Shown piece by piece: positions 4,596 through 18,073 of a DNA stretch of 64,000 bases. This DNA comes from a phage. Positions within the stretch are counted from its first letter, which is position 1; each line of letters starts with the position of its first letter. The notes under the pieces were generated by a model. It searched no databases and was not told the DNA's origin. It saw nothing but the letters and a program-made list of their open reading frames with translations. Both the position numbers and the translations under genes were made by a program. The stretch is from the NCBI GenBank assembly GCA_036439915.1, contig GCA_036439915.1_3065.1; one strand, given 5' to 3'.

Positions 4596-5770
4596 TGAGT
4601 ATGTTGCAACGCCCTGGATATCCAAATCTCAGCGTTAAATTATTTGATAGCTACGACGCTTGGAGTAATAATAGATTTGTTGAATTAGCTGCTACTATTA
4701 CCACATTAACTATGCGGGATTCTCTTTATGGCCGAAATGAAGGAATGCTGCAGTTTTATGATTCTAAAAACATCCATACAAAAATGGATGGAAACGAAAT
4801 AATTCAGATTTCTGTAGCTAATGCAAACGATATTAATAATGTTAAAACAAGAATTTATGGATGTAAGCATTTTTCCGTGTCAGTAGATTCAAAGGGTGAT
4901 AACATCATTGCTATTGAATTGGGAACTATTCATTCTATAGAAAATCTTAAATTTGGCAGACCGTTTTTCCCTGATGCAGGTGAATCTATAAAGGAAATGC
5001 TTGGTGTCATTTATCAAGACCGCACGCTATTAACTCCAGCGATAAATGCTATAAATGCTTATGTTCCTGATATTCCGTGGACTAGCACATTTGAAAACTA
5101 TTTGTCATATGTCAGAGAAGTTGCTCTAGCTGTAGGAAGTGACAAATTTGTATTTGTATGGCAAGACATCATGGGGGTTAACATGATGGACTATGATATG
5201 ATGATAAATCAAGAACCATATCCAATGATTGTCGGTGAGCCATCTTTAATAGGTCAATTCATCCAAGAATTAAAATATCCATTGGCATATGATTTCGTTT
5301 GGTTGACTAAATCGAATCCTCACAAACGTGACCCAATGAAAAACGCTACTATCTATGCTCATTCATTTTTAGATTCTTCATTGCCAATGATTACTACAGG
5401 AAAGGGCGAAAACTCTATTGTAGTGTCAAGGTCAGGTGCTTATTCTGAAATGACTTATAGGAATGGATATGAAGAAGCTATTCGTCTTCAAACTATGGCG
5501 CAATACGATGGCTATGCTAAATGTTCTACTGTCGGTAATTTTAACTTGACTCCTGGCGTTAAAATTATTTTTAATGATAGTAAAAACCAATTTAAAACAG
5601 AATTTTACGTTGATGAAGTTATCCATGAATTATCAAATAATAATTCAGTAACTCATCTATATATGTTCACTAATGCAACGAAACTGGAAACAATAGACCC
5701 AGTTAAGGTTAAAAATGAATTTAAATCTGATACTACCACTGAAGAAAGTAGTTCTTCCAATAAGCAATAA
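4595..5770 (+). CDS. 27: baseplate hub protein gp27
   Basis: 391-aa ORF; T4 synteny and length. Confidence 0.9.
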
Positions 5771-6248
5771 AGAAGTTTCTATTCCTAAAATGGGTCTTAA
5801 ACATTATAACATTTTAAAAGATGTTAAAGGTCCTGATGAAAATTTAAAACTTCTTATTGATTCTATTTGTCCGAATTTATCACCGGCAGAAGTTGATTTC
5901 GTTTCTATTCATTTATTGGAATTTAATGGAAAGATTAAATCTCGTAAAGAAATAGATGGTTATACTTATGACATTAATGATGTTTATGTATGCCAAAGAT
6001 TAGAATTTCAATACCAAGGAAATACATTTTATTTTAGACCTCCTGGAAAATTTGAACAATTTTTAACGGTGAGCGATATGTTATCTAAATGCTTGCTTAA
6101 GGTCAACGATGAAGTTAAAGAAATTAATTTTCTTGAGATGCCAGCATTCGTTTTAAAATGGGCAAATGATATTTTTACAACTTTAGCAATTCCTGGCCCT
6201 AATGGTCCAATAACTGGAATTGGCAATATTATTGGATTATTTGAATGA
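5715..6248 (+). CDS. 28: baseplate hub distal protein gp28
   Basis: 177-aa ORF overlapping 3' end of gene 27. Confidence 0.8.
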
Positions 6249-8017
6249 AAAAGCCACAAGAAATGCAAACGATGCGTAGAAAAGTTATTTCAGATAATAA
6301 ACCAACACAGGAAGCGGCTAAATCCGCTTCCAACACTTTATCTGGACTTAATGATATATCTACGAAATTGGATGATGCTCAAGCTGCTTCTGAATTAATA
6401 GCTCAAACTGTCGAAGAAAAATCGAATGAAATAGTTGGAGCAATTGGTAACGTAGAAAGCGCAGTGAGTGATACTACTGCTGGTTCTGAGTTAATTGCTG
6501 AAACTGTCGAAATTGGCAACAATATTAATAAAGAAATCGGTGAATCACTCGGAAGCAAATTAGATAAATTAACAAGTTTACTAGAGCAAAAAATCCAGAC
6601 AGCTGGAATTCAACAAACAGGAACTAGTTTAGCTACGGTTGAAAGCGCTATTCCCGTTAAAGTCGTTGAGGATGATACTGCTGAATCTGTGGGTCCTTTA
6701 TTACCAGCTCCTGAAGCAGTTAATAATGATCCTGACGCTGATTTTTTCCCTACCCCTCAGCCAGTTGAGCCAAAGCAAGAATCACCAGAAGAAAAACAGA
6801 AAAAAGAAGCATTTAACTTAAAATTATCTCAAGCTTTAGATAAATTAACAAAGACAGTTGATTTTGGATTTAAGAAATCCATTTCAATTACTGATAAAAT
6901 ATCAAGCATGCTATTTAAGTATACCGTCAGTGCTGCTATTGAAGCTGCTAAAATGACTGCAATGATATTGGCTGTTGTTGTTGGAATAGACCTGTTGATG
7001 GTTCATTTTAAATACTGGTCAGATAAATTTTCAAAAGCCTGGGATTTATTTAATACTGACTTTACTAAATTCTCTAGCGAAACCGGAACATGGGGCCCTT
7101 TATTACAGAGCATCTTTAGTTCTATTGATAAAATTAAGAAGCTGTGGGAAGCTGGAGATTGGGGCGGATTGACAGCAGCTATTGTAGAAGGGCTTGGAAA
7201 GGTTCTTTTTAATTTAGGAGAGCTTATTCAACTTGGAATGGCTAAATTATCTGCTGCAATTCTTCGAGTCATTCCTGGCATGAAAGACACTGCTGACGAA
7301 GTAGAAGGAAGAGCACTAGAAAATTTCCAAAACACTACAAATGCTTCTCTTAGCAAAGAAGACCAAGAAAAAGTTGCAAATTATCAATATAAAAGAATGA
7401 ATGGCGATCTTGGTCCAATAGCAAAAGGACTAGACAAAATTGCGAACTGGAAAACTCGCGCATCTAACTGGATTCGTGGTGTTGATAATAAAGAAGCACT
7501 AACGACTGATGAAGAGAGAGAAGAGGAAGAAGAAAAATTAAAGCAACTTTCTCCGGAGGAAGCTAAAATTGCTTTAATGAAAGCTAATGAAGCTCGTGCT
7601 GCTATGAATCGTTTTGATGAATACGCTAATTCGGCTGATATGAGTAAAGATTCAACAGTTAAATCAGTTGAAGCTGCCTATGAAGACCTTAAAAAACGGA
7701 TGGATGACCCGGATTTAAATAATTCACCGGCAGTTAAAAAAGAGCTTGCTGCTAGATTTTCTAAAATTGATGCTACTTATCAAGAGCTCAAGAAAAATCA
7801 GCCTAATGCCAAACCTGAAACTTCTGCTAAATCGCCAGAAGCAAAACAAGTCCAGGTTATTGAAAAGAACAAAGCACAACAAGCTCCTGTTCAACAAGCA
7901 TCTCCTTCGATCAATAATACTAATAATGTTATTAAGAAAAATACTGTCGTTCATAATATGACACCCGTAACGAGCACGACTGCTCCTGGTGTATTTGATG
8001 CGACTGGAGTTAATTAA
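6245..8017 (+). CDS. 29: baseplate hub / tail length determinator gp29
   Basis: 590-aa ORF; T4 synteny and length. Confidence 0.9.
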   Translation: MKKPQEMQTMRRKVISDNKPTQEAAKSASNTLSGLNDISTKLDDAQAASELIAQTVEEKSNEIVGAIGNVESAVSDTTAGSELIAETVEIGNNINKEIGESLGSKLDKLTSLLEQKIQTAGIQQTGTSLATVESAIPVKVVEDDTAESVGPLLPAPEAVNNDPDADFFPTPQPVEPKQESPEEKQKKEAFNLKLSQALDKLTKTVDFGFKKSISITDKISSMLFKYTVSAAIEAAKMTAMILAVVVGIDLLMVHFKYWSDKFSKAWDLFNTDFTKFSSETGTWGPLLQSIFSSIDKIKKLWEAGDWGGLTAAIVEGLGKVLFNLGELIQLGMAKLSAAILRVIPGMKDTADEVEGRALENFQNTTNASLSKEDQEKVANYQYKRMNGDLGPIAKGLDKIANWKTRASNWIRGVDNKEALTTDEEREEEEEKLKQLSPEEAKIALMKANEARAAMNRFDEYANSADMSKDSTVKSVEAAYEDLKKRMDDPDLNNSPAVKKELAARFSKIDATYQELKKNQPNAKPETSAKSPEAKQVQVIEKNKAQQAPVQQASPSINNTNNVIKKNTVVHNMTPVTSTTAPGVFDATGVN

Positions 8018-10424: not shown

Positions 10425-10466
10425 TCAGTAAGATTATTATAACACAACACGAGGGACTTGTAAACT
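10425..10466 (-). promoter_or_regulatory. T4-type early promoter (GTTTAC -35, TATAAT -10)
   Basis: minus strand reads GTTTACAAGTCCCTCGTGTTGTGTTATAAT; near-identical copy at 26220-26260. Confidence 0.6.
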
Positions 10467-12522
10467 ACATTTTGAACTTTTTAGACATTCCGTTGATATT
10501 AACCAAAGAAGCCAAGATTTGAGAAACTTCGTTTTCCTCTTCTTTTGATTCTTCTACAAGGAATTGATTAAATCCAGCCATTGGACGAACTTCACCAGTT
10601 TCCATTAGATGGTCGCCATCATATACCGATTCTTCTAATTGTTCAGAAGGAGGAACGATTGTGCCTTCGATTAGATACTTGTTATAAGCAGTTTCTTTCA
10701 TCATGTACGTACTCACTTTATTAATCTTCAGCAAAATTCCACGCGGTAGAATAACTTCAGCTTCTGATGGAAATCCTGATAAATGTCCTGGAACGATAAC
10801 TTTGATTCGCTCAGCTCCTTTAATTACCATACCCACGCTAGTTTCAGCATCTTCATTGGCATACGCAGAATGACTACCCATATGCATTAAATCTTCAGCG
10901 TCAACAGAACCTTCTCCTTCACCAGAAAATACTGCACTGGAATCATCTAGGGCCATATAGTTTTTACCATACTCACCGAAGATATTTGGTTTAAGCGATG
11001 TGGATACGAAGTTCTTGAAATAGAACATTTTATTTTCAATATTATGACGTAAAGTTTTAAAGGTAACTTCTTGGCCACGGTAAAGCGTAGTTCCTGGAGG
11101 AAGAACTGATCCTTTGGCAAAAGCAGAATCCATCGTCTCGATGTGTTTAATAGCTCGTTCCATATATTCTTCACGGGTAGAATCCGGTTTACCTAAAAGG
11201 AACGAGTTCATTTCAACATATGAATCTGCACAATAATCTTCAATTACATCAGACTCAGCCTGAGTTAATCCTTTTGGGGGTACTTCAGTACTTGCATATT
11301 CATACGCTTGAGAAGCAGACTCATTAATCAATTTATAAACGCCATTCATGACAAATTGAATAATAGCTACCTTTTCATCTGGCGTGGCTTTAGAACCTTT
11401 AACTAAATCATTGACAATTTTCTTAATAACATCAAAGCTATTAGAAATATTAATGTCAGCAAGATCACTTAAAATTTTATCAGTTTTATAATCAAAAAAT
11501 TCTTTATTCTTTAAATATTCTTGAGAACCTTGATATGATATATCGCTCTGTAACTTGATAGATGGATCACGTAAACGCGCATGAGCCAATGCAATATGAT
11601 TTCGGAAGCTTTCTAATTCATAATCACTAGATTTAAAACGGGAAGCACTTCTCATACCACCGATAGCTCCTTTGCTGAAGTTTGAACCAACCTGAATAAC
11701 GCCGGAGTTCATTGGTCCTTCTGCTTTATATACCGGAACTTTAGATTCAAACTCTTGGTATTTCTTAGCAGCGAAGCTATCACCCTGAAGCGAAGCATCG
11801 ACAGTAGAATATTGAGCTTGTGCTGCTAATCGACGACTAATTTTAGTTTTCTGAATAACAGCTTGATCCGTGCGCTTATCATTTTCTAAAGCAATAGAAG
11901 CGGCAACAGCGACAGCTTTAGGAACAGCATTACCTGTTTTAACATCTACATAAACATCACCAACCTTTGATTCAACTTTTGTGAATAACTCAGTTGAAAT
12001 AGGAGGTACACCTGGAATGTCTTCTAAATTGGCATTTTTACGGTAAACCATAATATATGCATATTTCTTATCATAGTCCCAGATTTCTTTTAAAAGAACA
12101 TATCGACCTGCTCCTTTAGTACGTACTAAACGGTCAGCAATAACTTGAATTTGTCGAGCTGCGCCATTTGTTTTACTCTTTAGTACGCGGAATAAGCATG
12201 CGTCAATTTTGTACTGTTTCATTGTCTGAAGAGCAGTATCAAAAACCGCATTAATGGCACCAATTGGATTTCCACCCAAGTTTTTAAGTTTAACTAATGA
12301 TAGTTTCTCATTGACACCTATCATTACGATATGCATCATTTTATCGCCTGGCTTAACGTTTTTGTTTGTATCACCGCCAGAGGTGTATGTACAAAATCTA
12401 AATCCAGGAAGCACGCTTTCTTCACCTGCTTGAATAGCAAAAATTTGAGGTATTTTATGCTTAGGATTTAAGTTAACAACCGGCGCCGAAGCGCCGTCAA
12501 ATAATTCTGTAATAAGTTCCAT
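10465..12522 (-). CDS. Alt-like ADP-ribosyltransferase, second paralog
   Basis: 685-aa ORF; N-terminal ~230 aa closely similar to adjacent Alt; R (LYRG), STS (FVSTSL) and ExE (SEAEV) motifs. Confidence 0.85.
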   Translation of the reverse strand: MELITELFDGASAPVVNLNPKHKIPQIFAIQAGEESVLPGFRFCTYTSGGDTNKNVKPGDKMMHIVMIGVNEKLSLVKLKNLGGNPIGAINAVFDTALQTMKQYKIDACLFRVLKSKTNGAARQIQVIADRLVRTKGAGRYVLLKEIWDYDKKYAYIMVYRKNANLEDIPGVPPISTELFTKVESKVGDVYVDVKTGNAVPKAVAVAASIALENDKRTDQAVIQKTKISRRLAAQAQYSTVDASLQGDSFAAKKYQEFESKVPVYKAEGPMNSGVIQVGSNFSKGAIGGMRSASRFKSSDYELESFRNHIALAHARLRDPSIKLQSDISYQGSQEYLKNKEFFDYKTDKILSDLADINISNSFDVIKKIVNDLVKGSKATPDEKVAIIQFVMNGVYKLINESASQAYEYASTEVPPKGLTQAESDVIEDYCADSYVEMNSFLLGKPDSTREEYMERAIKHIETMDSAFAKGSVLPPGTTLYRGQEVTFKTLRHNIENKMFYFKNFVSTSLKPNIFGEYGKNYMALDDSSAVFSGEGEGSVDAEDLMHMGSHSAYANEDAETSVGMVIKGAERIKVIVPGHLSGFPSEAEVILPRGILLKINKVSTYMMKETAYNKYLIEGTIVPPSEQLEESVYDGDHLMETGEVRPMAGFNQFLVEESKEEENEVSQILASLVNINGMSKKFKM

Positions 12523-12525
12523 GAT

Positions 12526-14622
12526 TTATCCTTGAACGAACTTGTAAGGCATGTTTGTAATATCTATGCAAGACGCAATAATTCCGAGAGATGATTCTGC
12601 TTTCTGTTTAACATTTGATGAAACAAATGATGCAAAGTCAACTCTGTCTTCTATTTCAATATCATCTGTCATTGCAACTACTTCACCAGTTTCCATTAGA
12701 CGGTCACCGTCATAAATTACTGATTCGGTGAGTTCTTCCGTAGTCATAACTTCAGTTTGAATGAGTTTTGTATTATTAGATGTTGTTCCGTCATTATTAG
12801 AAGCATCAGTTATTTTATTAACTTTGACCATCAATCCGCGTGGTAGAATTACTTCAGCTTCTGTTGCTATTCCGAGACTTCCTGGATATACAACATTAAC
12901 TTTATGAGCTCCATCAATTGCCCATCCTATTTGAACTTTAACGTATTCAGGATTTTCTTTATACGCTCTTATTTCGTTTGGATTAATAGTTATTCCTTCT
13001 TCATTTTTATCAACTGTTAATTCATTACGAGCTTCTGGTTCTAAAAGACCGATACCAGCATGTGTAATTCCAAAACGTCCAAAAATGATAGGAGTTAAAG
13101 AAGTAGATACAAAATTTCTGAAATAGAACACTTTATTTTTAACTAGCGCTTCGTATATAGGAGCAGTCATACTTTGAGCACGATAAACTGTAATGCCTTC
13201 TGGTATACGGTCACCATTTTCAAAAGCTGAATCTAAATTATTTATCGCAGATTCAATTTCTTTTTCACTCATTACATCATATCGTTCTGGATTGTAACGA
13301 CCCAAAAGAAGATTATTGATGTCAGTATATCCTGAACCACAATACTCTCTAATGCCGCGCTTTTGTGATGGAGTATATTTAGAACCATCACGGGCAATAG
13401 TAATATCAATCATTGGACCTGCACCAATTCCAGAAAAGCTATAAATCATTCGTTTGAGGAATTTAGTTTTTGCTGCGTTCCAGGAATTTTTAGTTATTTC
13501 TTCCCAGACTTCATCTGACTGCCCTTTACGGGTTTTATTATGTTTATCAAGCCAATTATCTTTATATTCTTCAAAGAATTTATTAATAGCTGCTGCATAC
13601 TTCTCTAAACATTTTATTGAAGTGGTTGGTTCATTTTTAATCGCATTGAGAATTACATCTTTAATTTTTTCAGAAACTTCATTAACCTCACTTTTTGAAA
13701 AGAATTTATAGTCATAGTGAAGTTCATCTGCGGTTCCTTCGGCAATAATTTTTGCTGCCTTAGTTTTAGAAGCTAATGAATTAATTCCAAGCTTCATTTC
13801 TTCTGCTTCGGGAATTAAAGGAGCTGTAGCAGGTTTATTGAAATTAGCTGCGGTAGATTCATATTTCTGGAATAATTCGCTTTCAAATCTAGAAGATTCT
13901 AATGACTGACTTTGCGCAATTGCTCTACGGGAAATTTTAACTTTAACGATTACAGCTTGGTCAGAACGTTTATCATTTTCTTGCGCAATAGATGCAGCAA
14001 TTGCCTCATTTTTAGTTACTTGAGCTCCAGTATCTTTATTGATATAAACATCGCCGACTTTCGATTCAACTTTAGTAAAGAGCTCGGTACTAATTTCCGG
14101 AACTCCTGGAATGTCTTCTAGTGATACATTTTTGCGATGTATAAGAATATATGCATACTTTTTATCATAATCCCAGAGTTCCTTAAGAAGGACGTATCTT
14201 CCACCTGAACGACTACGGATAAGTCTATCAGCAATAACTTGAATTTGTCGAGCTTGACCAGCAGTTTTAGACTTAAGAATACGGAGCATACAGGCATCAA
14301 TTTTATACTGACGCATCGTCTGCATTGCAACAGTAAAAACTGAATTGATGTAATTAATTGGGCTTGGACCGAGACCTTTTAATTTAGCAATTGAACCTTT
14401 AGCAGTTAATGTAAAAGGAACAATATGCATCATTTTATCGCCCATTTTTAAATCGCGATTAGTATCACCTCCAGATGTATAGGTACATAAACGAAAGCCT
14501 GGTTGTTCAATTGCGTCATCAACGTGAACTGAAAAAATTTGTGGTATTTTCTTCTTTGGATTTAAGTTTGTAATCGGAAGAGTAGTATCTTCGTCAAATA
14601 ATTCTGTAATAAGTTCCATCAT
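12526..14622 (-). CDS. alt: Alt ADP-ribosyltransferase (virion-packaged, modifies host RNA polymerase)
   Basis: 698-aa ORF adjacent to ligase as in T4; R (VYRAQ), STS (FVSTSL), ExE (TEAEV) motifs. Confidence 0.9.
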   Translation of the reverse strand: MMELITELFDEDTTLPITNLNPKKKIPQIFSVHVDDAIEQPGFRLCTYTSGGDTNRDLKMGDKMMHIVPFTLTAKGSIAKLKGLGPSPINYINSVFTVAMQTMRQYKIDACMLRILKSKTAGQARQIQVIADRLIRSRSGGRYVLLKELWDYDKKYAYILIHRKNVSLEDIPGVPEISTELFTKVESKVGDVYINKDTGAQVTKNEAIAASIAQENDKRSDQAVIVKVKISRRAIAQSQSLESSRFESELFQKYESTAANFNKPATAPLIPEAEEMKLGINSLASKTKAAKIIAEGTADELHYDYKFFSKSEVNEVSEKIKDVILNAIKNEPTTSIKCLEKYAAAINKFFEEYKDNWLDKHNKTRKGQSDEVWEEITKNSWNAAKTKFLKRMIYSFSGIGAGPMIDITIARDGSKYTPSQKRGIREYCGSGYTDINNLLLGRYNPERYDVMSEKEIESAINNLDSAFENGDRIPEGITVYRAQSMTAPIYEALVKNKVFYFRNFVSTSLTPIIFGRFGITHAGIGLLEPEARNELTVDKNEEGITINPNEIRAYKENPEYVKVQIGWAIDGAHKVNVVYPGSLGIATEAEVILPRGLMVKVNKITDASNNDGTTSNNTKLIQTEVMTTEELTESVIYDGDRLMETGEVVAMTDDIEIEDRVDFASFVSSNVKQKAESSLGIIASCIDITNMPYKFVQG

Positions 14623-14674: not shown

Positions 14675-14860
14675 ATAATCTAGTGGTAAGAGAGTACGAT
14701 ATATTTCAAACTTTGGCCCTTTTTCATAGGCATCAAATGTTTCTGTAAATTTATTATAAGCATATGCATCTACAAATTCAAGAACGATTTGTGATACAGA
14801 AGTAGAAACATCTCCACCTTCTTTTTGAGCCACGACAATTGTTTCTAAGTAAGCTTTCAT
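14672..14860 (-). CDS. hypothetical protein between gene 30 and alt
   Basis: 62-aa ORF overlapping ligase stop by 4 nt. Confidence 0.6.
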   Translation of the reverse strand: MKAYLETIVVAQKEGGDVSTSVSQIVLEFVDAYAYNKFTETFDAYEKGPKFEIYRTLLPLDY

Positions 14861-16317
14861 AGACCAGTTACCTCATGAAAATCACCAAATACATCCTCGA
14901 ATGTATTAGCTTTAGTTTTATCTTCACGTAAACGAATCGCAATCGGAAGAAATAATTTAACGTAATCAGTGCGGCCATCAGATTTTAACCAACCGTTGCA
15001 TTCGCACTCTAGAATTTTTCCAATATAATAATTTTGTTTTTCCATAATGCGAGTACGGTCAAGTTCATGTGATTTTACGCCAGCTTTATCTTTTAAACCT
15101 GAACCGGCATTTACTTTAATTTTTCCACACTCTGATTCAAGAATAAATCCACCTGCTTTAGTAGGATCTTTACGGTGAGGATAAATTCCTACAATTTTTA
15201 AATCAACATCAATTACTTCTTTAAATTTATAGAGATTTTTTGAACGAGCATTTTCCCACAATCCATCGGTATTTTTGAGAATAATACCTTCAAGACCTTG
15301 GTCAATATATTTTTTATAAATTACCTTAGCTTCATCTAGGTTATTTACTACCTGGTTTTCAATTAAAATTACTTTATCATATCCTGATGTCATTTGTTCT
15401 AGTTTAGAAAAACGTACATCATATTTTAAACGAAACGCCGGAAGACCGTATATTTCTACCAACGGAACATAATCCCAGACCTGAAACTTCATGCATTTGG
15501 CTTCTTTTTCGGAAATGGTTCCTTTTAAGGATTTATTGGCGATTCCATTAGAAGCAGTACGAGATTCCGCTACTTCGGCGAATTCTTTAGCTTTACTAAT
15601 TTCAGGAGCATCAAAAAGAAAATCTAGGCCTTCTGGTTCCTTTTCAACTTGCTCATGGTATACCAATTCGCCATCAATTAACACACCTTCTGGATGAATC
15701 TGGCGGGCTTCAGCGGTCATTTTGATTAACTCTTCCTTAAGAAGATCTAATCCTAGGTATTCATTGCCAGCTCGCGATAAAAGACGAACATCATCTAATT
15801 CATCACCTCGGACTTCAGCAAAACACCGAGCTCCATCTGCTTTTAACTGCGCAAAAGCTGGAAATTTGATATTCTTACTAATGCCTTTTTCATCATAAGA
15901 ACTTGCAAGCATTTGAGGTTGTTCAGGAATTAAACCTGGCCAAACTTTGTTTGCAATAGATACTGATGCACCGCATTCAAGGTCTCGCATCATCACCCGA
16001 CGCAAAACTTCAACATCATCTTTTTTACCGTCAGTAATATATCCAGTTAATTCCTCAATTGCCGCATTTCCAGTCAATTTCCGAGTAGCTAATGTGAATT
16101 CAATGAAGTCAAGCATATCGGTAAGAGTCAACATTCCAAAACTCTGGGTAGCAATACCAGGTTTAGGCCATTTCTTGATATAATACTGTAACCCACGAGA
16201 ATAAGTCAGACGATATACTCGTTTGAGCAATTCATTATCTTTATTCTTTTCAAGAATTGCTTGCTTTTGCTTAGTTGAACCAATAGATGCTATTTCATTC
16301 AGAATTTTAAGAATCAT
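14857..16317 (-). CDS. 30: ATP-dependent DNA ligase
   Basis: 486-aa ORF recognised as T4 DNA ligase; KADG adenylation motif. Confidence 0.95.
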   Translation of the reverse strand: MILKILNEIASIGSTKQKQAILEKNKDNELLKRVYRLTYSRGLQYYIKKWPKPGIATQSFGMLTLTDMLDFIEFTLATRKLTGNAAIEELTGYITDGKKDDVEVLRRVMMRDLECGASVSIANKVWPGLIPEQPQMLASSYDEKGISKNIKFPAFAQLKADGARCFAEVRGDELDDVRLLSRAGNEYLGLDLLKEELIKMTAEARQIHPEGVLIDGELVYHEQVEKEPEGLDFLFDAPEISKAKEFAEVAESRTASNGIANKSLKGTISEKEAKCMKFQVWDYVPLVEIYGLPAFRLKYDVRFSKLEQMTSGYDKVILIENQVVNNLDEAKVIYKKYIDQGLEGIILKNTDGLWENARSKNLYKFKEVIDVDLKIVGIYPHRKDPTKAGGFILESECGKIKVNAGSGLKDKAGVKSHELDRTRIMEKQNYYIGKILECECNGWLKSDGRTDYVKLFLPIAIRLREDKTKANTFEDVFGDFHEVTGL

Positions 16318-16583
16318 TGTTCATCCTTTAGAGTTTGGTTTACAGCTCTATTATAAATCAATTCATCATTAAGCTCAGGCAAAGACTTATGATATGTAGT
16401 TCTAACTTTATTTCCTTGCATCCAGTGCTTGACGTAAATGAAACCTTGTTCTACACATTTTTTAAAAATTCGTTCGTCTTTTTGAGCACGGAATTCTGGA
16501 TTGCATCTAAAAAATTGATTTACGTGACCGTAATCACGTGTAGTATTACCTTCATTTTCATAAATAGTATGAACAACAAACAT
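16314..16583 (-). CDS. hypothetical protein (30.1 position)
   Basis: 89-aa ORF; synteny. Confidence 0.65.
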   Translation of the reverse strand: MFVVHTIYENEGNTTRDYGHVNQFFRCNPEFRAQKDERIFKKCVEQGFIYVKHWMQGNKVRTTYHKSLPELNDELIYNRAVNQTLKDEQ

Positions 16584-17419
16584 TAGAATGCTCCTTGAAA
16601 AATATTATCACCACTAGTAGGTCTATTATACAAATACTCTATGCCACCAGGTTTAATATAGTTCCATGTCTGAAACGGATATGGATGATATGGATGATAT
16701 AGATTATAAGGATTAAATCCAGGCGTTCTCCAGGTAGTGTTCCAAGGAAAAGAATCGTTTTTAACCATCTTCTCAATTACATCTTTTATAGCTTTTTCAC
16801 TATCAAAATTTTCTTTATTTTCCTTCGGTGAAAAAAGCTTATTTTCTACATCATTCCATGTATAAACTCGCTGAGCAGTTTTTGGAATATTGTCACGTTC
16901 TCCTCGAGCCATCCAATAAACCGGAACATTTAATATTTCACTCGCGTGGTCGCAGTGGTGAGCGAGATCGTCAATATAACAAATTACGTTATATTTCTCT
17001 TTTGCCTTTTTAAACAACTCTTCTTTTGAAGAATCATGACCACACATCATTACTTCTGAGAAGGCACCAGGAAAAAGAGCATTCAAATTAAATTGACGAT
17101 TTAATAGAGCATCAATAGAATCACCCAATGCTGTAACAGCTACAAAATTATAATCTTCTTTTAATTTGTTAATTACACACAGGGCATCTTTATACGGAGA
17201 CAAGTAACGAATAAAATCTGAACGATTGTATTTTTCAATTAACTTGACGCCAAGTTCTTCGTCACAATTAAAGAGTTTACCTGGAGAAATAAATTTCTCA
17301 TCTTGGATCATTTTTAAAATATGTTCTAATGGAAGATTATATTTCTGAGCAAAATAAGGAAGGCCTGATTGCCAGCTTAAACATACTCCATCAATATCAG
17401 TCAAAATAGTTGGCTTCAT
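16583..17419 (-). CDS. hypothetical protein with HAD-like DxDGV motif (30.2 position)
   Basis: 278-aa ORF; N-terminal ILTDIDGVCLSW resembles HAD motif I. Confidence 0.65.
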   Translation of the reverse strand: MKPTILTDIDGVCLSWQSGLPYFAQKYNLPLEHILKMIQDEKFISPGKLFNCDEELGVKLIEKYNRSDFIRYLSPYKDALCVINKLKEDYNFVAVTALGDSIDALLNRQFNLNALFPGAFSEVMMCGHDSSKEELFKKAKEKYNVICYIDDLAHHCDHASEILNVPVYWMARGERDNIPKTAQRVYTWNDVENKLFSPKENKENFDSEKAIKDVIEKMVKNDSFPWNTTWRTPGFNPYNLYHPYHPYPFQTWNYIKPGGIEYLYNRPTSGDNIFQGAF

Positions 17420-17880
17420 AGAGAGTCTCTTAATAGGTTTAACACATCAATAAATTCAGCTTCGGTTAGTATTGTATCATCTTTTGTTAGACCACTAGCC
17501 ATGCTGTGCTTCAAAACTTTTCCTTTCGAGGCTTGTAATGCATCACGAAAGCCCCTGTTTTGGATCGCTGCTTCAAAATATGCATTTGTGTATAATTCTT
17601 TCCATGCTGGAGAGTATCTTGAAAATGGAACTCCAAGCCAGAACAACGTGCCACGGTCCTGAGCTCTAGCATAAGACCTTCCAGCTTGTTGAGCGGCAAG
17701 CCCGGATAACCCAAATATACGTCTTTGCTGTTCAACATTTTTCACCTTACACCCTTGGAGGAATCCTTCGAGACCTCCAAATTGGATACCGTCCATAACA
17801 AAAGGCCATTGGGCGAAATTGCTTAATGCACATGATGGCCATCTAAAATTGCTTCTTATCTCTAGCTCAGACATTTTCAA
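17416..17880 (-). CDS. NADAR (YbiA/DUF1768)-like protein (30.3 position)
   Basis: 154-aa ORF; LSNFAQWPFVMDG...EGFLQGCK resembles YbiA FSNFAAWPIKVDG...EHYFQAQK. Confidence 0.6.
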   Translation of the reverse strand: MKMSELEIRSNFRWPSCALSNFAQWPFVMDGIQFGGLEGFLQGCKVKNVEQQRRIFGLSGLAAQQAGRSYARAQDRGTLFWLGVPFSRYSPAWKELYTNAYFEAAIQNRGFRDALQASKGKVLKHSMASGLTKDDTILTEAEFIDVLNLLRDSL

Positions 17881-18073
17881 TACTTATAATTTCAACATCA
17901 GCCCAATGACCATAGCAAGGAAGACGAAATTCAACTGGCCAGTTAGGGTCCTTTTCTAATATAATAGACTTAACTTGTGGTTCTTCATGTTCATCGGTAT
18001 ACGGACCTTTATACGTTACTTTATATGTGACCTTAATGTACTGAATTCCAAAAATCTTATTAATTATATTCAT
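17867..18073 (-). CDS. hypothetical protein
   Basis: 68-aa ORF in 30.x block. Confidence 0.55.
   Translation of the reverse strand: MNIINKIFGIQYIKVTYKVTYKGPYTDEHEEPQVKSIILEKDPNWPVEFRLPCYGHWADVEIISIENV

Follow-up and report, generated by a model that had tools for sequence, protein, structure and literature searches.

What does a NADAR-like gene do in a phage genome when it lies back to back with a HAD-type phosphatase gene and close to two genes for ADP-ribosyltransferases (ARTs)? This arrangement occurs on the minus strand of a 64,000-nucleotide stretch of phage DNA (contig GCA_036439915.1_3065.1 of GenBank assembly GCA_036439915.1; hereafter the window), for which an initial annotation made from the letters alone had proposed an ADP-ribose or nucleotide modification and repair module, possibly countering host DarT-like toxins. 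Tequatrovirus (T4-like) genomes match the region at ~97% identity, and the window belongs to a Tequatrovirus, a T4-like phage. Both open reading frames (ORFs) lie where they had been placed, on the minus strand, and correspond to T4 genes 30.3 and 30.2. Taken as a whole, the best explanation, which we consider probable, is that 30.3 is the counter-defence gene adfN, that 30.2 encodes an accessory HAD phosphatase, and that the Alt-like ART paralogs nearby are independent of both.

Gene 30.3 (adfN; 17416..17874, minus strand) encodes a protein of 152 amino acids (aa), assigned as a phage-type NADAR DNA ADP-ribosylglycohydrolase. The mechanical ORF (17416-17880, 154 aa) begins at a TTG; the ATG annotated in T4 lies two codons downstream, at 17874, and starting there reproduces the published residue numbering (E36/K43). 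A 75-aa out-of-frame ORF inside 30.3 (17511-17738, minus strand) corresponds to 30.3' of the T4 annotation ("internal translation, in a different reading frame"). The window protein is 98.7% identical to T4 gp30.3 (NP_049816) over residues 1-152, with two amino acid differences, and matches the Pfam family PF08010 (Phage_30_3) along the whole profile (positions 1-138 of 138) with 234.1 bits (cut-off, 36; E = 5e-70). The NADAR pattern read in this ORF by the initial annotation (SNFA.WP, DG, E, F, Q, and K) is present with all its elements in the listed order (L17-SNFAQWPFVMDGIQFGGLEGFLQGCK-43), but the spacing given was slightly off, with six residues from DG to E and with E-x-F where E-x-x-F had been written. 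In the N-terminal E-x-[FY]-x-Q-x-x-K motif, the catalytic Glu and Lys are present (E36 and K43) and, like H123, invariant among 10 homologs down to 40% identity. The residue of the last strand that distinguishes the NADAR families is His (H123 in LKHSM), and the C-terminal helix is intact (helix 138-151 in the model, within the full-length alignment to T4).

Single-sequence searches of the 30.3 and 30.2 proteins against PDB and NCBIfam gave no meaningful match, and PADLOC matched neither. With a profile of 30.3 homologs the best PDB match was YbiA, at a marginal E value of 0.056, E36 and K43 aligning with the E and K of YbiA. Marginal profile matches of this kind, for 30.3 and (see below) for 30.2, were treated as leads, which fold searches then confirmed. 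The AlphaFold2 model (predicted local distance difference test [pLDDT] 83; predicted template modeling score 0.81) retrieved only three PDB structures with a Foldseek probability of >0.9, namely, YbiA (2b3w; E = 1e-4, template modeling score 0.63), the NADAR of Geobacter lovleyi (8bat), and that of P. nicotianae (8bau), the rest having E values above 2. On the basis of the model and these matches, we assigned a YbiA-type alpha+beta fold with a helical core and two flanking small sheets. Sequence and predicted structure together identify the window 30.3 as a phage-type NADAR of the gp30.3/AdfN family, so that Pfam, fold prediction, and the conserved catalytic residues all agree with the NADAR identity first suspected, and the structure prediction proposed as a check places the protein inside the NADAR fold with its catalytic residues present. 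Nor are the motifs of the two genes a product of chance, given the E value of the PF08010 match, the presence of each gene in about 1,500 phage records (1,511 and 1,453 for the two), and the invariance of the motif residues across homologs.

The function of this protein has been reported for T4 itself. Johannesman et al. (Nat Commun 2025, PMC11825919) traced the ability of T2 and T4 to resist DarTG1 to gene 30.3, which they renamed adfN: its deletion left no plaques on DarTG1 hosts, its expression rescued phage RB69, and the substitutions E36A and K43A weakened it. In vitro, purified AdfN stripped ADP-ribose from DarT1-modified DNA and the E36A variant did not (PMC11825919). The RB69 allele is described there as inactive through a frameshift that costs the last 15 residues; 30.3 of RB69 is annotated at a short 414 nucleotides, whereas the window allele is full length. 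The same paper reports that, without infection, AdfN-T4 fails to neutralize DarT1 in cells and that its rescue of T5 or Bas25 is weak, and it postulates an as-yet unknown T-even factor for full AdfN-T4 activity (PMC11825919). Earlier work had assigned gp30.3 to the phage family of NADARs, in which His stands where YbiA has Glu and DarG1 has Asp (PMC11125620, PMC11543638), and had described it as guanosine-specific in vitro, on both DNA and RNA (PMC11125620, PMC11833690). All substrates with reported NADAR activity are base-linked (guanosine, plus cytidine for some families, in DNA or RNA), the enzymes being inactive on thymidine- or phosphate-linked ADP-ribose. In the methods of PMC11125620, the construct named "E. 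coli T4 phage NADAR (gp30.3)" spans residues 1-208, which disagrees with the 152 aa of both T4 gp30.3 and the window protein.

The window gene shares with adfN of T4 its locus, its neighbors, E36, K43, and H123, and the C-terminal helix. It also shares its fold (Foldseek probability 0.97) with the G. lovleyi NADAR, a DarG1-type antitoxin (Schuller et al. 2023, PMC11543638), and guanine-ADP-ribose hydrolysis and the conserved Glu and Lys are described as common to DarG1/DarT1-associated NADARs and the phage NADAR (PMC11543638). However, DarG1 has an N-terminal extension where the phage 30.3 is a bare core, and 30.3, unlike DarG1-type antitoxins, is not paired with a DarT. From the identity to the T4 protein and the intact catalytic residues, we infer that the window allele is a guanine-ADP-ribose hydrolase. 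During infection of a DarTG1 host, DarT1 would ADP-ribosylate guanines in the phage DNA, and AdfN would cleave the ribose-guanine N-glycosidic bond, restoring the base, releasing ADP-ribose, and letting replication proceed. The two functional proposals of the initial annotation for this ORF were well aimed. Reversal of guanine ADP-ribosylation is what the T4 protein does to DarT1-modified DNA, and the countering of DarT-like toxins is right because of the experiments on that 98.7%-identical protein, T4 and T2 being reported to need gp30.3 to grow on DarTG1 hosts (PMC11825919; HIDEN-SEQ preprint). What had been inferred from the letters alone was accurate, but the main part of it was in print, and the finding is therefore already known.

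Gene 30.2 (16583..17419, minus strand), assigned from its HAD motifs and an AlphaFold2 model, encodes 278 aa and begins MKPTILTDIDGVCLSW, the HAD-type start with DxDGV that had been noticed. Residues 1-195 (16835..17419, minus strand) make up a predicted HAD-superfamily phosphatase domain with a helical C1 cap, and residues 196-278 with the stop codon (16583..16834, minus strand) comprise one helix followed by an aromatic and proline-rich tail. An alignment of 64 homologs has the same division, with ~195 conserved N-terminal residues and a highly variable tail. Across it, D8 and D10 of motif I (D8-x-D10) and K132 of motif III are invariant, and T96 of motif II and D150-D151 of motif IV are at least 90% conserved. 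In the model (pLDDT > 90 over residues 1-190), the HAD core is Rossmannoid and motif I is followed by a helical insertion, the C1 cap; the motif residues are found where core strands end (E4-7, E91-96, and E145-150 in the model), as expected for HAD motifs. For most of residues 201-278 the pLDDT is 42 to 61, with a block at 211-220 reaching 83; the alignment is highly gapped beyond residue ~200, and many homologs have just 196 to 230 aa and no tail. With fold and motifs in agreement, gp30.2 is predicted to be a HAD phosphatase with intact catalytic motifs, as the initial annotation had it.

Which kind of phosphatase is less plain. The protein falls in phrog_420, where function is unassigned, and the window sequence matched no Pfam family at E ≤ 1 and none in NCBIfam. 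Weak matches to PF06941 (NT5C) were obtained for 12 of the 64 homologs (best E = 1.2e-4), and the top PDB match of the 30.2 profile was the deoxyribonucleotidase cdN (2jao; E = 0.14), aligned through D-x-D-G-V-L-x-x-[WF]-x-S-G-L, in which W16 of gp30.2 pairs with the Phe of the cdN motif DGVLADFESGL. Judged by such sequence comparisons, the closest affinity of gp30.2 is with the 5'(3')-deoxyribonucleotidases (NT5C), and because this affinity stays below the family thresholds we did not file it as a member. The NT5C enzymes (cdN/mdN, PDB 2jao and 2i7d; Staphylococcus epidermidis 3bwv) share the HAD core and helical C1 cap with gp30.2, which differs from them in a larger cap and the extra C-terminal tail of ~80 aa. 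A search of the available literature library by gene name and accession found no paper or biochemical data on gp30.2.

Is this phosphatase a functional partner of AdfN? The stop codon of 30.3 overlaps the start codon of 30.2 in an ATGA (17416..17419, minus strand; sequence CTCTATGAAGCCA), an overlap that, to judge from sequence, couples the translation of the two genes, and a promoter and terminator scan between them gave no signal above background. The junction has the same position in 13 complete Tevenvirinae loci (L001-L005, L007-L013, and L015) and is missing from RB69, whose 30.3 carries a frameshift. The adjacency of 30.3 and 30.2 is kept in the Tevenvirinae, Morganella phage MP1, Acinetobacter phage Ac42, and Aeromonas phage phiAS5. 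Moreover, a divergent 166-kb T4-like contig (L021) has a 30.2-family HAD within 700 bp of its NADAR despite an inverted gene order (4736-6456). Between the two genes of this contig, with the HAD upstream, are two ORFs that match no Pfam family, one of 81 aa and one of 155 aa with an HELMH (HExxH-like) motif.

NADAR and HAD domains also occur in a single polypeptide. In two IMG/VR loci (L023:5914-6966 and L024:3478-4440), one protein combines a gp30.3-type NADAR (PF08010) with a C-terminal NT5C-type HAD (PF06941), the latter scoring 39 and 55 bits, above the cut-off. A database search with the fusion as the query returned 1,831 matches, and both domains were present in all of the best 120 clusters (P0123-P0242); about 20 of these 120, with proteins of 503 to 508 aa, carry in addition an N-terminal domain of the NAD-dependent RNA 2'-phosphotransferase KptA/Tpt1 (PF01885). 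The fusions are largely from Bacteroidales, with neighboring genes for ADP-ribosylglycohydrolase, RNA ligase, HD/kinase (polynucleotide kinase-like), methyltransferase, other NADARs, WYL, and phosphatase (loci L031-L033). Their domain order from N to C terminus, NADAR and then HAD, is that of the T4 genes 30.3 and 30.2, although the fusions are single, mostly bacterial polypeptides and the T4-like phages have two genes. Iyer, Aravind, and colleagues (PMC9503650) have proposed that enzymes removing ADP-ribose are coupled to phosphatases, a HAD 5'-nucleotidase among them, that process the released ADP-ribose; NADAR-NT5C(-KptA) fusions are not mentioned in the consulted passages of the papers cited here. 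Outside the Straboviridae, gp30.3 homologs adjoin RNA-related genes: that of Caulobacter phage CcrColossus (L028) lies by a nucleotidyltransferase and an RNA ligase, and that of Ralstonia phage RSP15 (L030) beside a tRNA cluster and an "RNA-binding protein." This context resembles the RNA repair context of the Bacteroidales fusions.

Taken together, the fusions in gut Bacteroidales, the T-even factor postulated for AdfN-T4, and the T4 genetics that exclude 30.2 under standard DarTG1 conditions (see below) point to processing of the ADP-ribose product, or to other ART toxins, for the role of 30.2. In such a scheme, gp30.2 would be an active HAD phosphomonoesterase whose substrate is either an ADP-ribose-derived phosphoester or a nucleotide. 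Candidate substrates would be a mononucleotide, ribose-5-phosphate or AMP from released ADP-ribose, or a phospho-ADP-ribose derivative, and its step would be an accessory or clean-up one, nonessential and outside the core DarT1 reversal reaction. A bolder version makes gp30.2 the dedicated second enzyme of a recurrent two-step ADP-ribose detoxification, represented by the 30.3-30.2 pair in T4-like phages and by NADAR-NT5C fusions, with or without KptA, in Bacteroidales; we consider it unlikely, and regard as equally doubtful its corollary that the substrate of gp30.2 is either an ADP-ribosylated mononucleotide or a phosphorylated ADP-ribose derivative, beyond the reach of AdfN alone.

A number of results weigh against such a partnership. 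No 30.3-30.2 pairing was found within 4 to 6 kb in six IMG/VR loci from distant myovirus contigs (L018-L020, L022, L025, and L026), and the gp30.3 homologs of CcrColossus, Rhizobium phage RHph_N34, and RSP15 have no HAD neighbor. In KVP40-like Vibrio phages, the matches to 30.2 (35% identity) and 30.3 are ~100 kb apart, each match coming from a different member of a set of related genomes. In close relatives the two genes may be neighbors through inherited synteny alone, and the near-identical record counts of 30.3 and 30.2 are expected anyway for two genes common to Straboviridae. As to the fusions, their HAD is a canonical NT5C, not a 30.2 ortholog; hhalign related the 30.2 family to the fused HAD with 71% probability (E = 3.6e-5), over motifs I and II only. 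An exhaustive phmmer search of the 30.2 family yielded 445 representatives, most of which stand alone and have 190 to 230 aa, and the longer or multidomain members that were scanned contained no NADAR or other informative domain.

Genetic data point the same way. From the T4 transposon sequencing (Tn-seq) of the HIDEN-SEQ preprint, the values for 30.2 were taken on DarTG1 hosts (Data S6), on DarTG2 hosts, and in LB versus M9 medium. On DarTG1, insertions in 30.3 dropped from 261.0 to 0.7 (log2 fold change -7.25, adjusted p 0), while those in 30.2, over 71 TA sites, went from 271.5 to 249.8 (log2 fold change -0.12, p = 0.61, adjusted p 1.0). Insertions in 30.2 were also neutral on DarTG2 (log2 fold change 0.00) and in M9 (-0.10), and the preprint scores the gene as nonessential. 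Since they are neutral, there is no genetic evidence for 30.2 in the known job of AdfN. Genome-wide, Data S6 lists only 30.3 and 30.4 as significant DarTG1-conditional T4 genes, with a log2 fold change of -1.79 for 30.4 (adjusted p 0.014). Gene 30.4 of the window (17867..18073, minus strand; 68 aa, phrog_2042 and T4 annotation) lies directly upstream of 30.3. Because it overlaps the start of adfN by 8 nucleotides, the simplest reading of its depletion is a polar effect on adfN. A T-even factor potentiating AdfN is what 30.4 would formally be a candidate for; RB69 also has 30.4.

The genes on either side belong to the same early-gene string. The region is a minus-strand run of closely packed ORFs, and comparison with the T4 annotation showed it to be collinear with the T4 order 30.7-30.6-30.5-30.4-30.3-30.2-30.1-30-alt.1-alt, so that the window holds the T4 early-gene string 30.4-30.3-30.2-30.1-30. 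Downstream of 30.2 is gene 30.1 (16314..16583, minus strand; 89 aa, T4 annotation), a DUF3045 protein (PF11243, E = 5.6e-63) whose start overlaps the 30.2 stop by one base. One 30.2 homolog of 302 aa (P0037) bears PF11243 itself, which suggests occasional read-through or fusion between 30.2 and 30.1. Gene 30 follows (14857..16317, minus strand), an ATP-dependent DNA ligase 98% identical to T4 gp30. The two Alt-like ARTs described as lying nearby are there in tandem. One, of 698 aa and in the T4 alt position (12526..14622, minus strand), matches PF03496 at E = 1.2e-37, ending 2.0 kb from 30.2 and 2.8 kb from 30.3; the other, a second full-length copy of 685 aa (10465..12522, minus strand), matches it at E = 2.9e-20. 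They are 42% identical to each other. At the place of the second Alt, T4 has only alt.-1 and alt.-2, which its record describes as remnants of an alt duplication.

How, then, should the proximity of these genes be read? That gp30.2, the obvious candidate, is the missing T-even factor of AdfN-T4, the two forming an obligate counter-defence module, would fit the factor postulated in PMC11825919, the presence of 30.2 in T4, T2-like phages, and RB69 (mainly Straboviridae among the matches listed), the ATGA overlap, and the NADAR-HAD fusions elsewhere. However, a needed cofactor should be depleted in the Tn-seq unless it is redundant, and only 30.3 and 30.4 were; AdfN alone, moreover, is reported as active in vitro (PMC11825919). 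This role is largely refuted by the Tn-seq already, and we judge it very unlikely. We accordingly rejected 30.2 as the missing cofactor on the values of HIDEN-SEQ Data S6. A second possibility leaves ADP-ribose aside altogether: gp30.2 would be an NT5C-like phosphatase of (deoxy)nucleoside monophosphates serving the nucleotide pool, placed beside adfN through the conserved T4 early-gene order. Its NT5C-like sequence affinity, the missing DarTG phenotype, and the lack of a HAD neighbor in 30.3 relatives outside the Straboviridae all favor it, as do the near-identical genus counts of both genes, as if they were simply widespread in the phage family. It is harder to reconcile with the repeated fusion of gp30.3-type NADARs to NT5C-type HADs in unrelated bacterial contexts, with the L021 contig, where the two genes are close together despite their inversion, and with the translational coupling of 30.3 and 30.2. 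We see it as a serious possibility, if not one that we would bet on; weighed against each other, a role of gp30.2 on a nucleotide or ADP-ribose-derived phosphoester and a purely nucleotide-pool role come out roughly even.

The ART genes invite yet another reading, in which NADAR, with the HAD, would reverse or tune the ADP-ribosylation made by the phage's own Alt, ModA, and ModB, as the eraser of a module whose writers are the neighboring ARTs. Two Alt paralogs lie only 2 to 3 kb away, and the NADARs of T4-like phages are described as early genes expressed along with the ARTs (PMC9503650). Against it, the NADAR activity reported is on base-linked ADP-ribose only, while Alt is annotated as an ADP-ribosyltransferase of protein (RNA polymerase). 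The preprint data show no DarTG1 interaction for alt, modA, or modB, and host DarT1 fully explains the adfN phenotype as published. RB69, with one alt and a broken 30.3, has no reported defect on ordinary hosts. An eraser of this kind strikes us as exceedingly improbable; the Alt paralogs would instead be independent, virion-injected protein ADP-ribosyltransferases, mechanistically unrelated to AdfN. Because 30.2 and alt lack a DarTG1 phenotype and NADARs act on base-linked and not protein-linked ADP-ribose, the nearness to the ART genes looks like shared early-gene synteny, not a reversal pair. The joint ADP-ribose module of the initial annotation is therefore left standing in part: translational coupling and NADAR-HAD fusions elsewhere speak for it as far as 30.3 and 30.2 are concerned, but the same missing phenotypes and the base-linked substrates speak against it. 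We regard the functional link between 30.2 and 30.3 as suggestive but unproven.

For T4-like phages, AdfN is an established counter-defence, and its presence in a genome of this kind is expected. The residual interest of the locus lies in the HAD phosphatase coupled to adfN and in the widespread NADAR-NT5C(-KptA) fusions. If gp30.2 did have the two-step role outlined above, this would matter against other ART-based toxins or defences, beyond the single DarTG1 system used in tests to date.

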